From the NCBI GenBank assembly GCA_951406725.2, contig OX597830.1, positions 44,950,001-45,014,000 of the forward strand: 64,000 bases of DNA, read 5' to 3'. A model generated the notes under the pieces. It worked only from the letters and a program-made list of their open reading frames with translations. It searched no databases and was not told the origin of the DNA. Shown piece by piece: positions 110 through 62,160 of the stretch (its first letter is position 1; each line of letters opens with the position of its first letter). This stretch comes from Octopus vulgaris. Lineage: Eukaryota. Position numbers and translations under genes: made by a program.

Positions 110-887
110 ATAATGCAATAAATAAAATATATGCATGCATACAAACATATATGTACGTACCTACATCTACATGTATATATACATGCATATATAAATATAT
201 ATATGTGAGTACAGGACACTGCAACTAGACGTAGAACTCAACGAAAAACGAAAACGGACAAGCCATATTTTTACAACAAAAAAACAGAGACGAAACGAAA
301 ACGGGAAAAACATTATTTTTTACAACAGAAAAACAAGGTACAGGACAAACCACACAGGAAAAATCCCCAGTTCATCAGCTGTCTCTAGCTAACTCAAGCG
401 TGTTTCGAAGGATAAAACAGGACATGACTCATCAACTAGTCCTTCATTGCGAGAGAATTAAAATAAAATTGCCTCGCATAGGGGCAAAAACAGACAAGAA
501 AAACATGTGTCTGTTTTTGCCCCTATGCGAGGCAATTTTATTTTAATTCTCTCGCAATGAAGGACTAGTTGATGAGTCATGTCCTGTTTTATCCTTCGAA
601 ACACGCTTGAGTTAGCTAGAGACAGCTGATGAACTGGGGATTTTTCCTGTGTGGTTTGTCCTGTACCTTGTTTTTCTGTTGTAAAAAATAATGTTTTTCC
701 CGTTTTCGTTTCGTCTGTTTTTTTGTTGTAAAAATATGGCTTGTCCGTTTTCGTTTTTCGTTGAGTTCTACGTCTAGTTGCAGTGTCCTGTACTCACGTA
801 TATATATTTATATATGCATGTATATATACATGTAGATGTAGGTACGTACATATATGTTTGTATGCATGCATATATTTTATTTATTAC

Positions 888-4500: not shown

Positions 4501-7500
4501 TATTGGTGCTACTATGTGTACAAAAGCAAATGTTTCACAGGTGAATATGCTTTCTAGCAAGATTGATATATTTTCATAAACAATCTTTTAAAATAGAATT
4601 GCTGAATATTATTTACCTAGTGGTTTCCTTTTTAATATATCCAAATTCTTTTGGGCCAACTCCTCAAGCATTTGTCCAATCTCTCTAAACATTGTAAAAT
4701 TTAGGGCCACCATGGTGTAACTGTCACTGTCATTGGGATGAAAACGTTTGAGATAATCTAAAATTGCAGACCTCAGCTGATCTTCCTGGTAAACAAATAA
4801 GAAGAACAACAATTATTTCACACATGAAAATAGGCAAAACAATTTAACTTAAAATTATATATCAGCAATTAATAAATGATCCTGTCAACTGATTCTAATA
4901 ACTATCACTTACAAAAGTAGTCATCATTTATTTGAATAATATCAAATGCCTAAATGTTTAGAAGAAATTTTATTTACACTTGAAGTCATGAATTGAAATT
5001 TTATTTACACCTGAACCCATGTGTCTGCTCACATATTAGGGCAAACTACAAACTATGGAAAGTAGGAAATAAAAGTCTTCTTTCAGAACATGACAAATTA
5101 TAATTATTACTTAGATATTTAGAATAGTTGAGTTTTCTAAAGTTTTAAACCAGATTTGATTTTAGCAGGTTATAGCTTGCTGTAGTAGATGATCAGAGAA
5201 ATTTCTTCTTGTTGACACACAACATCAAACCTGCCTAACTTGTAGACATACAGAAAAAGAATATTTTCAAAATAAATTTCAAATTCAGATTAATAGTTTC
5301 TTTATCAACTCTTCAGAGAAAAATTAAAGCATATAATTATTGAATTCATACATTTTAAGTGGATATTTAAAGTTTTGATGTAAATTATGAGGTTGAAAAA
5401 TATTGATATAGAAGCAGAATGACAGTGATATTAAAAGTGTTAGAGAAATGATAACATAGTAATGAAATCAAGTTTTATGAGTGCATTGTTTCCCTAAATA
5501 ATCCTGCTTTCCTCAACTGATAATGTCTCATGTTAGGAAAGAAAACAATGTGAAAAATAGAATTGAAACACATTGAGTTGTTAGTCGTTTTACACAGTTC
5601 TTTTTATTTCATCTAGGTTTTATATAGCATTAATATTCATTAATTAATATCTATCAAATCAACAACATTAAATATGATAAAAATTTTGATGCTACAAATT
5701 TTGATGTAAACTTTTTTCTACTGGACCAAATCTCAATTTTTTTTTATGCCAAAATGTGGCTAGGGACCAGTCCTTTTCAAAAATGTTAACAGTTTTCAAT
5801 TTGGTTATGAAGTGAATTAGCAACAAGCTCTGAAAGATGTTGCATGTGAGTAAATTGCAGCCTTAAGAATATTATTCAACTACAATTGTAGGTGAATGAT
5901 TATCAATGACAGTGGCAGAAAGGGATGAACAAAATATTAGATAGTTTTTTACAAAAAGAAATAAAAGGTGCTGATATATTGTTAAAGTTCTGACAAGTGT
6001 AAGGAGGTTGATGGGAGCAATGAGTAAAGTACTTAAACTATAGCTAATTAAGCATTGTTGTTGATTAAGTAAATTTATTGGAACCATAGTTAATTAAGCA
6101 TTGTTTTTCCAATAAACAATATTTACATTTGACGGATATTTGTCCTCATCTTGTTTGTTGTTAACACGTTTCGGCTGATATACCCTCCAGCCTTCATCAG
6201 GTGTCTTGGGGAAATTTCGAACCTGGGTTCTCATTCCACTCATAATTCCACATCTCTTAAATATGGAACAGTGCTTTCTAATAAAGTTTGATAAACTAAA
6301 CTTATGATGCAAATCTCAATATTATAGCTAAAAATTTCACTGACAAATTGAATAATATAGGTGATACACTGTATATATTGAGAGTTATAAGAACAAAGAT
6401 AATAAAATTTTAGAGCATTTACAAAATTAAGAACCTCTAAAACAAAAGAACAACCAAATTACCTTTTCCATTCCTTTCCTCATCAGCAGCTCAAACTGAT
6501 GATGTTGCTTCAGCGCATCAAATATGTAGGTCATCTCATTGAAGCGGCCAACACCTGTTAATAGGCTGATCTATAACAACAGAAAGAGATATACACAATC
6601 ATTATTATTTCATATATACACAATGAATCAAACTGTTGGAAAGGAACAATTCCTAACAGTGAGCTACAAGTAACCTTAGATACTGAGAACCATCTTAAGT
6701 ATCCAAGTTGTACTTAATAATACGGTTTTCTTGAGCTGTACTGAATTAAGTTTTATGCCTATTTCCTCTATCTATTTGTTCAAATCTTTAGAGATAGTTC
6801 CTAATGCACTTGTAACTACAAGAATATATTTTACCCATACTTTCCACAGCCTCTGTAACTCAAAGGCTAGGTCCTGGTACTTAGCTATTTTTTCTATACC
6901 TCTCATATTGACTTTCTCATCATTTGGGACTGTAAAGTCAATTTCCTGCCACTTTCTATTCTTTTTGTCAGGCACAATGTTAAAATCCCACAACACCTTA
7001 CATTCCTTACTTTCTAACACTTTTCTAGGTTCGTGTTCATACCACTTAACAGTATGGTCAAATCCAAGCTTTCTACATAACTCTCAGAACACTTGGCAAA
7101 ATGTTTAGCGGCATTTCGTCTGTCTGCACATTCTGAGTTCAAATTCTGCTGAGGTCATCTTTACCTTTCATCCTTACAAGGTTGGTAAAATAAGTAATCG
7201 GCTCATCTCCTCCCTCAAAATTGCTGCCCTTGAGGCAAAATTTGAAACCATTATCATTATTATTATTGAGTGAGAGTAGCACATGCCATCAAAGTGACAC
7301 TGGGGTACAAATATATGAAACCCAATATACCTATCATGACTACCTATCTGATAAGGGCACATGCATCACAACCATATGTGCATGACATGGCGATTTCAAA
7401 TCAAGATAAACAGTGCATGATTTTGCAGGTAGGGCCCAGTTAGAATTTTCTTCAAGTTGAGTAGCCCATCCTGCTCAAGAGGTCCCTCAACAAGGGTCGT

Positions 7501-25846: not shown

Positions 25847-26358
25847 TATAAGGAAAACAGAAAATAGAGATAAAATTGATGAATAATAATTGATTTACAT
25901 CAATTATCATTTATCAATTAATTACAAAAAGACATTATCTAATCTTACAGCTGTTTCCATTAGTGTGATTCCCAGGCTTAACCATCTCAGTAATAATATA
26001 AGTTATCATTGTAGGTAATTAATTATACCAATTTGAATAGTGGAACTTCACCAGAGTGGAAAAGTAAAGAAAACTATAAAAAGAAAAAAGAAAAGGAGAA
26101 AGCGAAGAAACAATGATATATCAACTCATGTTACATGCTGTCCCTCTGGGAAACTTTTGAGCAACAAGAATTTAGAAATAGAATTGGGATAGTTACAATA
26201 TTTAGTGGTACATTCGTATATACAGAGGGAAGGCTACTGGTGGTGTGGGTTTACCTATCATTTATGAACATTAATACTAATACTCATGATCACAATATAA
26301 GTAATACACTCATTTGATACAAGTATCCCTTAGATGGTTGTTATAACCTCTAACTTAA

Positions 26359-37575: not shown

Positions 37576-39983
37576 TGGGCTTCTTTCAGTTTCCATCTAC
37601 AAAATCCACTCACAAGGCTTTGGTCAGTGTGCATGAGCTAACAGGAGAGTTCCAACCTGCTGGAAATAGCAGCTAAATCTCCCTCAGATTATATCCTTTT
37701 GTCTTAAAGAGAGGTTTTCTCACCTATGCCTTTCAACCAATACCTCCACCGCCTTGTCACATTACCTTAAAATAGTGCCCTGAAATGCAAACAGCACTAC
37801 ATGCATATCTTCTACTATACTTGAGACAAACCTTCACCATTACATCAATCCTACATCAGTTATGTAGAAACTTGGCTCCCAAAATGAGAGACTTAAAATA
37901 GCACTTATCAAATCCACTGTCTTCGTCTTTAGTGGCATCATCAGAGACCATCAAGTACAACCAAACATCATACTCAAATTCATCACACCACACACACACA
38001 CACACACTACTTCTACAAAAAGGATGACATAGAATGTACAGGCATACTAAGAACATTTACAGGTACCATATTGTGCAAAAAGTTAAAATATAACAGTGTG
38101 CAAACAATGTATTTCAGCCATCATAGGTTATGCCTGCTTTTGTTGGGGCCCCTATTCTCTCCATTAAAAGAATACTATAATAGAAGAAAAAAGACAGAAG
38201 ACTGTCTATTATCACAAGCTGTTCACAGATACCTGCACACTGTAACAAAAATACAAAACATGAAAGACTACATCCAGGACAAGTGAGGAGCAGTTTGCTA
38301 CTACAGCAGACTCCAGTCCTCACAATCTTCACTAAACACCCTGACACATGAACACCACCACAGAACATGATTACAATAGTACACTAAAAACACTATCTCA
38401 TCCACTCAGCACAGTTAAACAGAAAAATAATATACACAGAAACAGATGCAACATGAATAACTTCATCAGTACCAAACACTATCTTTGGATGCAAACCATC
38501 AATAATAAACGTAGAGGAACAACAGCTGTCATGTTCTAACCAAGTCCACCTTGCCTGTCTTGGCTGTGGATATCACCAGAATCTCCAAGCAGCCATCAGA
38601 AATGGACTATAAAGGAAACTGTCACACTGCACTTCAATTCATCACTGAATGTCAGAGTGTGCACTATATTCATCAGTTATACATAGGCTTGGAATATCAG
38701 AAACAATAGGTCTGTGGGTTAGACCTTGTCATTCAGCTGGCTACCAAGATATCACAGGAGTGTTTAATCAGGTAATTAACAACAACTAAAACAGGTATGA
38801 GAGTGTGTAAATTATTTACCTGGTTGATATGTGAATACTGAAATGATATTATACTGAGTTAAGTATTTCAAGAGTTTCACAACATCAGAGATATTTGGCA
38901 AACCTGTCAACAGCTCTCTAATAAGGCATTGACAAGTTTCCTCTTGCCATGAAATGTCCCCAACCATTGGAAATACCTGGGCCATGTGATTAATAGAGGA
39001 CATCTTATCTTTAGATGGCTACAAAAAAAAAAAAAAAATTTACATATAGTAATGATAATAATAATGATGGAATAATAATGAATAATAATAATAGTATTGT
39101 TAATAATGGATAATAATAAGTTTATATTATTTGCAATTATTTAATAAATATATATATAGTTTAATAAATATCAGTGGTTTGAAAAGAATGCTTCATTATT
39201 TGCAATCATAAATTTTTTCCACCTAATATGTACTGTGAACGGCGTGATGCACATATTATTTTACTGGTATTATTAATATTATTAATAATAATACTAATGA
39301 TAATAATAATGATAATAATAATAATAATAATAATAATAGTAATAATAATGATAATAATAATAATATTAATGGCATTTTGTAACTTAATATAATGAACTCT
39401 TGACATTGTATATATACATTTGCATATGGATATGTGTATGTTTGTATATTGTAATATTCTAATATATTGATTTGACTAACTGTAACCTTATATATATATA
39501 TATGTGTATATTATTATATATCATTATGTATATACGTATATATATAGGTGCATGTGTATATACACTTATGTGTATGTGTATATTATATGTTATATATATG
39601 TGCTCATTCTTGTATGGGTGTACCTTCTCTGATATTCATACTTAGATTGTACTTTATAATCTCTGAAGAGGCCTTGGGATATATTTGTAAGTGTCTCATT
39701 TATAACCACATATTACTTATCACACCTGGCTAATATGGGCATAATGAGATACTCATATCTACATGGCTGAAACAGCTGTAAGATATAGTTTATATTTATA
39801 TTTATATTTATTTATACATATTGTACTTATTGTATCATATTACTCATTGATGTGCACTGTTTTGTTCTGTACTATTATGTTTGACCTTGATGTTCATATG
39901 TAGTTGGTTAATAAATTATGTGAATGGGTATTATCTGATAGTTGATTATTGATTAAGGTGTATTTCTCCATTTTCTTATTTTG

Positions 39984-40015
<32 letters not shown>

Positions 40016-61559: not shown

Positions 61560-61727
61560 TAATAATTAATATTACTATTTTCATTTTGGGGGTTTAAGTT
61601 ATAGCTGACAGGACTATTACTATCATTATTAATATAATTATTATTATTGCTATTGTTATTCTTATTTTTATTATTATTGTTAATGTTACTATTGTTATTA
61701 TTATTATTATTGTTAATGTTACTATTA

Positions 61728-61767
<40 letters not shown>

Positions 61768-62160
61768 TAGTTTCAACATTTCTGGCCAATCTTATATTCT
61801 TCCTATTTAATCTAGCTATGATGGTACTTATATTGGGGAGAGTAGAGTATGAGAATCTGTCTTACATGAAAAGATTCCATTATATCTGTGGGAAGTAGAG
61901 AAGTTTTTTTCTAAAATAGCCATAAATTTACTATATTTGTTTGTGGATATTCCACAGTTGAATGGGATAGTGCACCATACGAGATTTTTACCTTTAAATT
62001 TTTTATGTAAGTAAGGGTGGGATAAATTTGTGCTTGCCCTGCTCCCTAGAATTGTGCCATGATTAATAGTTTTGTATATATTTCTACTGGGTCCTTTATC
62101 TGGAGGAGTAACCATTTCTTTTTCTTTCTCACCTATTTTATTTAACCCGAGTTTTTTACA
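61560..62160 (-). mobile_element. Penelope-like element fragment (linker between RT and GIY-YIG), with poly-Asn (AAT)n expansion
   Basis: KNLVWCTIPFNCGISTNKYSKFMAILEKNFSTSHRYNGIFS, frameshift, RFSYSTLPNISTIIARLNRKNI; resembles the PLE consensus IIWFNPPY..TNIG..F..L..KHFP..H....IFN...KISYS..PNI..II..HN as I recall it. Confidence 0.75.

Follow-up and report, generated by a model that had tools for sequence, protein, structure and literature searches.

The hammerhead motif at positions 39659–39784 of the forward strand belongs, with a probability that we put at about 0.8, to the pLTR of a Hydra-clade Penelope-like element (PLE), in which it carries a paired stem II of 85–118 nt and likely cuts the transcript after GUA, in a reaction that probably involves a dimer or the aid of a protein, the copy in the window (the whole 64-kb stretch of DNA that was analysed) being probably a passive leftover. 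Support for this reading comes from the motif and the covariation of its long stem II, from the elements in which its relatives lie, and from the ends of genomic copies. It is a sister family, family C, that provides the evidence for cutting; family A, to which the window copy belongs, does not.

A hammerhead with an extended stem II

The type I motif was recognized in the sequence and by a descriptor scan. It starts with the 5' strand of stem I (atct, 39659–39662), which pairs with agat at 39781–39784, and continues with the catalytic core CUGAAGA (C3 to A9; 39663–39669) and a 99-nt insert, ggcc...ggct, that forms the extended stem II hairpin (39670–39768). The 3' half reads GAAAC (39769–39773), agct, GTA (39778–39780) and agat; its segment 39769–39780 comprises the core GAAA, the palindromic stem III ACAGCUGU (39772–39779) and the GUA triplet, and cleavage is predicted between 39780 and 39781, a site whose equivalent in family C coincides with copy junctions. 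This layout agrees base for base with that of the original prediction. The core elements CUGANGA, GAAA and UH are present, stems II and III are closed, and stem I is open, with the pairing kept, as in type I hammerheads. With a descriptor that required CTGANGA, a spacer of up to about 200 nt and at least 4, 3 and 2 pairs in stems I, II and III, the motif was the sole match on both strands of the window.

Folding of the region 39640–39800 gave −38.9 kcal/mol (z = −2.98), a value equalled by 1 of 200 shuffles, and the 99-nt insert folded alone reached z = −4.1 (60 shuffles). The predicted fold of the insert consists of 12 basal pairs (4 + 2 + 6), an 11-bp inner helix (39690–39700/39743–39753) and a further apical helix; about 13 basal pairs and this same 11-bp helix had been proposed. 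The stem III sequence ACAGCTGT is a perfect 8-nt palindrome with a self-duplex energy of −11.1 kcal/mol against +2.4 kcal/mol for the monomer hairpin, which bears out its supposed aptness for dimers. The active fold is not the one of lowest energy: its pair probabilities are 0.02–0.11 in a 147-nt context, and its penalty is 2.8 kcal/mol in a tight context. Stem I is weak, with two core-proximal pairs in all 12 aligned subfamilies and the outer two unpaired in 6 of them. Contigs of sequencing runs from four organism labels span parts of the motif; ends, strand and level are not readable from contigs.

As had been foreseen, standard models miss the motif. Rfam returned no match at gathering anywhere in the window, and at E ≤ 1 in four loci it returned no hammerhead family but microsatellite-driven miRNA-type matches far below gathering, a miss that we attribute to the length limits of the models and not to loss of the core. 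Copies of the motif are numerous. For the 161-nt region, 40 full-length matches were scored at 96–100% identity in the 2.8-Gb genome, a 26-mer of the motif occurs in 30 exact copies, and a degenerate long-stem-II pattern with a 75–105 nt gap gave 2,864 matches, with none for its reversed control. These three counts show that the motif is not a product of chance, and the last is a lower bound, because the pattern was built from families already seen.

Next, we grouped 111 motifs at 88% identity into 13 clusters (subfamilies), with inserts of 85–118 nt; most family-A copies have 100 nt where the window copy has 99. The inserts of 12 of the 13 subfamilies fold at z ≤ −2.3, and that of the L144 subfamily folds no better than its shuffles. 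Twelve subfamilies were aligned, leaving out L079 (118 nt, with an internal duplication). Their core and stem III are invariant bar positions 4 and 7 and the cleavage base. RNAalifold on the 12 rows predicted 17 pairs, 10 of them with two-sided change. When the window copy's own fold was taken as the structure to be counted, across rows that are related to each other, 82.9% of 351 cells were paired compared with 34–47% for slid partners, and 12 of its 30 pairs showed two-sided change. In the distal extension, i.e., the 19 pairs beyond the canonical four, 78.5% of cells were paired (slid, 35–58%) and two-sided change was seen in 9 pairs, a count equalled in 21 of 500 shuffles. The foot pair of stem II is G-C in five, G-U in four and A-U in three subfamilies. 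The search for paralogues and for covariation in the long stem II proposed with the original prediction therefore returned many paralogues whose pairing is kept by two-sided changes. Judged from these comparisons, the lineage has extended stem II into a paired hairpin of 85–118 nt that selection keeps paired.

What the hairpin is kept for admits a second reading, which we consider possible at well below even odds: that the long stem II acts as a further functional domain, e.g., a binding or regulatory site for the RT-endonuclease, and that cleavage takes place only in the RNP, as in a protein-gated ribozyme. Pairing far from the core persists among subfamilies with a mean identity of 68% in their aligned columns, arms of 55–60 nt also occur in more distant Hydra-type families of the same genome (L121, L124) whose ORFs are only 37–42% identical to that of family C, the hammerhead of an anole PLE is described as unable to cut unless its protein is present (PMC11167929), and most arms run through the cut site uncut. 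Against this, the length of the arm (85–118 nt) and its apical sequence vary freely among subfamilies, and selection for any stable hairpin would account equally for the covariation. An ADAR-type A>G excess was not detected in stem II, either in family A (8 A>G and 8 T>C changes in 82 copies, P = 0.81, with a failed flank control) or in family C (0 versus 2 in 32 genomic copies).

The Penelope-like element around the motif

The motif lies in a 5'-truncated, single-armed family-A copy (39212–39986, forward strand) that consists of the distal 3' UTR and the pLTR up to a "short" 3' end. Homology to other copies begins at 39212, upstream of which those copies run on with other sequence, and includes an (AAT)n-type microsatellite of the 3' UTR that is common to other copies (39268–39370, forward strand). 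At the other side, the terminal TTTTGTA merges into the (TA)n target microsatellite (39984–40011), an end that most of 30 copies share. Homology in 29 other copies either stops at 39986, before the (TA)n, or goes ~174 nt further to a second, longer end that is likewise TTTGTA plus (TA)n, and their left ends vary. Around the hammerhead the copy is 88% identical to L107 and L069, both of which extend into an ORF with RT and GIY-YIG domains. These elements of the same family uphold the PLE link that had been made earlier from weakly PLE-like coding debris at 39110–39225. The debris itself did not stand: it gave no tblastn match with nine PLE proteins and falls nearly all outside the element.

No ORF is found in the window copy, and the window holds no second family-A hammerhead; the upstream portion of the UTR is missing from the copy as well. 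Cutting would hence need a host transcript that carries the copy, which is probably an inert, passive leftover. Its description as the best candidate for an active ribozyme is hence borne out for the motif as a sequence, but not for the copy, a lone 5'-truncated arm without ORF or second hammerhead; by itself, this single copy is of little importance. Its intact core could be taken to mean that it was co-opted as a host regulatory ribozyme, which we hold to be highly improbable: an exact core is the family norm (28 of the 41 family-A arms that contain the whole motif) and the copy is 96–99% identical to dozens of others, so that intactness reflects youth. The G-U pair at the base of stem II, which had been ascribed to CpG decay in this copy, has U in 50 of 52 family-A copies and was consequently inherited. 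Nearby CpGs in family-A copies mostly survive (in 23 of 25 cases at one site and in 9 of 17 at a second), and the U may have arisen by deamination in a source copy.

We then characterized the complete elements. A protein search of the genome gave 138 scored RT matches, and 20 long stretches yielded whole elements, often with an inverted arm. The full unit runs from a pLTR through a ~145 nt 5' UTR, an ORF of ~945 aa (RT, Asn-rich linker and GIY-YIG, in that order) and a ~2.2 kb 3' UTR to a second pLTR. With a pLTR at both ends, two hammerheads flank a unit of 4.3–5.6 kb, and the ATG lies ~515 nt downstream of the predicted cut. The target of insertion is (TA)n. Two fixed 3' ends exist, separated by ~174 nt, and two-armed copies carry one of them on each arm; one long and one short end were found in 13 of 14 such insertions of family A and 6 of 7 of family C. 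Other features of a PLE are present, too: pLTRs with a hammerhead, 5' truncation, an inverted arm and a tail at one end.

In the family-A copies examined the ORF is frameshifted or stopped, and intact frames were seen in family C only, which shares 78% amino acid identity with family A and has open frames of 955–962 codons and a 947-aa protein. Pfam matched family-A copies with PF00078 (E = 1e-5) and PF01541 (E = 0.004–0.006); with the full-length proteins it returned no family. Family A (L107) carries RIRWK and SDKT, and family C RIRWR and SDKT; the CxCx5C linker, CxxC and CxH are present, and no CCHH was seen by eye. The Hydra clade is defined by RWK/RWR, DKT, CxCx5C, CxxC, CxH and (TA)n, among other traits (PMC8557442, section 11). 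On these motifs the element is assigned to the Hydra clade of C-terminal EN+ Penelope-like elements, and it departs from the clade in size, since units of 4.3–5.6 kb exceed the "generally <3 kb" that is typical, not strict, for it. Nematis, with a CX2-5CxxC linker and CCHH, and Naiad, with an N-terminal EN, were considered and set aside, as neither arrangement was found.

A non-autonomous retrozyme, i.e., a short non-coding repeat, would also agree with a window copy that does not code. This origin is very unlikely, however, because family-A copies run unbroken into the ~2 kb 3' UTR and the RT/GIY-YIG ORF (L069 and L107 largely refute it), the loci examined showed no short tandem unit, and the left ends vary as expected for 5' truncation. 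The identity of a non-LTR retrozyme was rejected for the family too: its units are not short non-coding tandem units without an ORF.

Some further properties of these families were observed. The ORFs of L116, L121 and L069 have an Asn-rich, partly microsatellite-encoded linker between RT and endonuclease, and their proteins measure 947–1071 aa compared with ~700 aa in most database relatives. At G000:C20, 8.78–8.83 Mb (L061–L066), four family-A copies lie in a ~13-kb tandem segmental duplication that also carries an unrelated open frame of 536–736 codons. In the abundant subfamily B (L106, L108, L110, L128, L132, L143), every copy seen has the core CCGAAGA (U4C), a change that reduces in vitro activity and yet supports a viroid (PMC3088659).

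Genomic copy ends at the predicted cut

To look for traces of cleavage, we mapped the 5' ends of the first 100 of 291 family-A matches and of 82 of 852 family-C matches, in genome order. A motif downstream of the cut served to pick the arms, so that their choice was blind to the position of the 5' end. In family A, 53 of the 100 arms cross the cut site and no peak of 5' ends was found at +1, the first base after the predicted cut; seven ends fall in +1 to +10, mostly within an AT-rich run, and L205 alone fits +1, via microhomology. In family C, 68 of the 82 arms cross the site, and 11 ends lie in +1 to +44 compared with 3 in +45 to +127 and 12 in −1 to −299. The 11 ends come from seven insertions, four of which have both arms there.

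Because the +1 to +44 range had been chosen after seeing the data, we ran a test of exact positions in family C. For each of five positions, the whole genome was searched with a pattern whose base just ahead of that position differs from the element's, and matches were classed by eye. Position +1 gave eight matches (six junctions, one point change and one small internal deletion), −21 gave five matches with one junction, +128 gave two matches with one junction, and no junction was found genome-wide at −3 or +7. Six of the eight family-C junctions therefore fall on +1, the site predicted beforehand (binomial P = 0.0012, on raw counts that are not scaled to the copies carrying each 22-mer), and around four of the six are ambiguous by 1–3 nt through microhomology. 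The junction excess at +1 is moderate evidence, of a genomic kind, and suggests that reverse transcription in the germline used family-C RNA that had been cut at GUC/A.

The same ends could in principle mark an RT stop at a structured edge, the motif being a conserved but catalytically near-silent relic whose hairpin serves the stability or structure of the RNA. We find this improbable. The lack of a +1 peak in family A, U4C in subfamily B, the weak stem I, and hammerhead mutants that still insert in vitro (PMC11167929) would all agree with a relic, but all 12 of 12 subfamilies keep the rest of the core bases and the palindrome unchanged, and the junctions fall on the very base that had been predicted, with none at −3 or +7.

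In the mechanism that we propose for the cutting hammerhead, transcripts spanning two pLTRs would bring two palindromic stems III together, and cutting would free a unit-length RNA with base +1 as its 5' end. RT, primed at (TA)n, would start ~205 or 380 nt downstream of the cut; on cut RNA it would run off at +1 and leave short copies, and on uncut or re-ligated RNA it would cross the site and leave most copies. The most likely role of the long arm would be to steady the basal stem II where the RNA is AU-rich; it may, in addition, dock the protein of the element. A more far-reaching proposal, which we advance tentatively and think rather doubtful, is that the stem II domain of 55–118 nt is a protein-docking switch and that the copy junctions are a direct in vivo record of a PLE ribozyme cutting germline RNA that was later reverse-transcribed. 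If true, thousands of overlooked long-arm hammerheads would form a natural test set for the role of PLE ribozymes, a role described as unclear in PMC8557442.

Another cluster of ends was seen in family C 541–578 nt upstream of the cut (L116 as reference), where 17 of the 82 arms end within 38 nt (e.g., L175, L176, L302, L310). It lies ~50–60 nt downstream of two CCAAT boxes, many loci are too short to show what lies beyond −585, and it is possibly the transcription start of the pLTR.

Relation to known hammerheads and other traces in the window

Hydra PLE hammerheads have been published before, including an octopus one (PMC8557442). As described there, Hydra-1_Obim and other Hydra PLEs share with our element a single ORF with RT plus GIY-YIG at its C terminus, the RWK, DKT and CxCx5C motifs, the (TA)n target, a type I hammerhead close to the 3' end, pLTRs in tandem, and inverted 5' arms; the N-terminal RT motifs of Hydra-1_Obim match when compared by eye. 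The most marked difference concerns stem II, which with its loop measures 85–118 nt here and 10–24 nt in that paper's File S2, as given by its 26 Hydra rows; the longest row of the table (~50 nt) belongs to a non-Hydra element. The unit is also longer than the <3 kb of Hydra PLEs, the ORF of ~945 aa with its Asn-rich insert exceeds the ~700 aa of most database relatives, the 3' UTR of ~2.2 kb is a further difference, and the tail between the two ends spans ~174 nt where 30–40 bp are described for PLEs (PMC8557442). In the literature covered, which did not extend to Repbase, Dfam, subscription journals, bioRxiv supplements or figure panels, we found no PLE hammerhead with a stem II near 100 nt; the "long helix II" mentioned in PMC13725137 is one of 6–8 bp.

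Metazoan PLE hammerheads as reported by Cervera and De la Pena (2014; PMC4209133) have in common with ours the location in pLTRs, a short stem I, a palindromic helix III for dimers and mass dispersal in the form of truncated single copies. The helix II that is called "larger than usual" there has 7–8 bp, whereas here it is a multi-helix hairpin of ~30 pairs, and most of our subfamilies have no bulged base after A9. According to the same source, such hammerheads cleave weakly as dimers, and in many of them the contact between loops 1 and 2 is absent or unclear.

The anole Poseidon element PAc (PMC11167929) resembles our element in having two RT start sites downstream of the hammerhead that define the tail; uncut RNA is reported as its main template and the ribozyme needs the protein. 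The ORF of PAc begins inside stem II and not ~515 nt downstream of the cut. For PAc, the one element studied in vitro, RNA ends at the cut, RNA-seq ends among them, were not found (PMC11167929), whereas genomic junctions mark the cut in one of our families. Family C, young and ORF-intact, offers a ready construct and, in the genome, a base-precise trace of the predicted cleavage.

Animal non-LTR retrozymes (PMC7229834; bioRxiv 10.64898/2026.07.22.740005) likewise have type I hammerhead repeats tied to PLE pLTRs, but are described as short non-coding tandem units, unlike the present family, which is autonomous in origin. As in the discontinuous Clec2 hammerheads reviewed in PMC2950038, a large insertion hides the motif from pattern searches; the search for those admitted insertions in loop 1 or 3 of ribozymes in mammalian mRNA, and ours, in a retroelement, is stem II in paired form. 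In this one genome, at least 2,864 motifs escape descriptor and Rfam searches, and the "half core" search in PMC8557442 used a spacer limit of 7–17 nt. Elements listed without a hammerhead or with a "half core" merit a re-scan using a long stem II.

Finally, we recorded other hammerhead and PLE traces. Two loci elsewhere, L115 (~250 nt upstream of a truncated ORF) and L113, have short-stem hammerheads of other families with stems II of 12 and 21 nt, adjacent to the elements studied here and in (TA)n runs. Within the window, identical hammerhead-like motifs with a TTGATGA core and GAAACAC form an inverted pair at ~370–470 (reverse strand) and ~540–640 (forward strand), which is probably another two-armed insertion. 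A short-stem hammerhead-like motif of yet another family lies at ~6140–6240 on the reverse strand (CTGATGA, 5-bp stem II, GAAACGT, poor stem I). The reverse strand also holds, at ~25930–26000, a half site, GAAACAGCTGTAAGAT, that equals the 3' core of the window family and has a damaged 5' core ~25 nt upstream, and, at 61627–62007, part of the ORF of a Hydra-type PLE that is more distant (the L123 protein matches it by tblastn, E = 9e-12).
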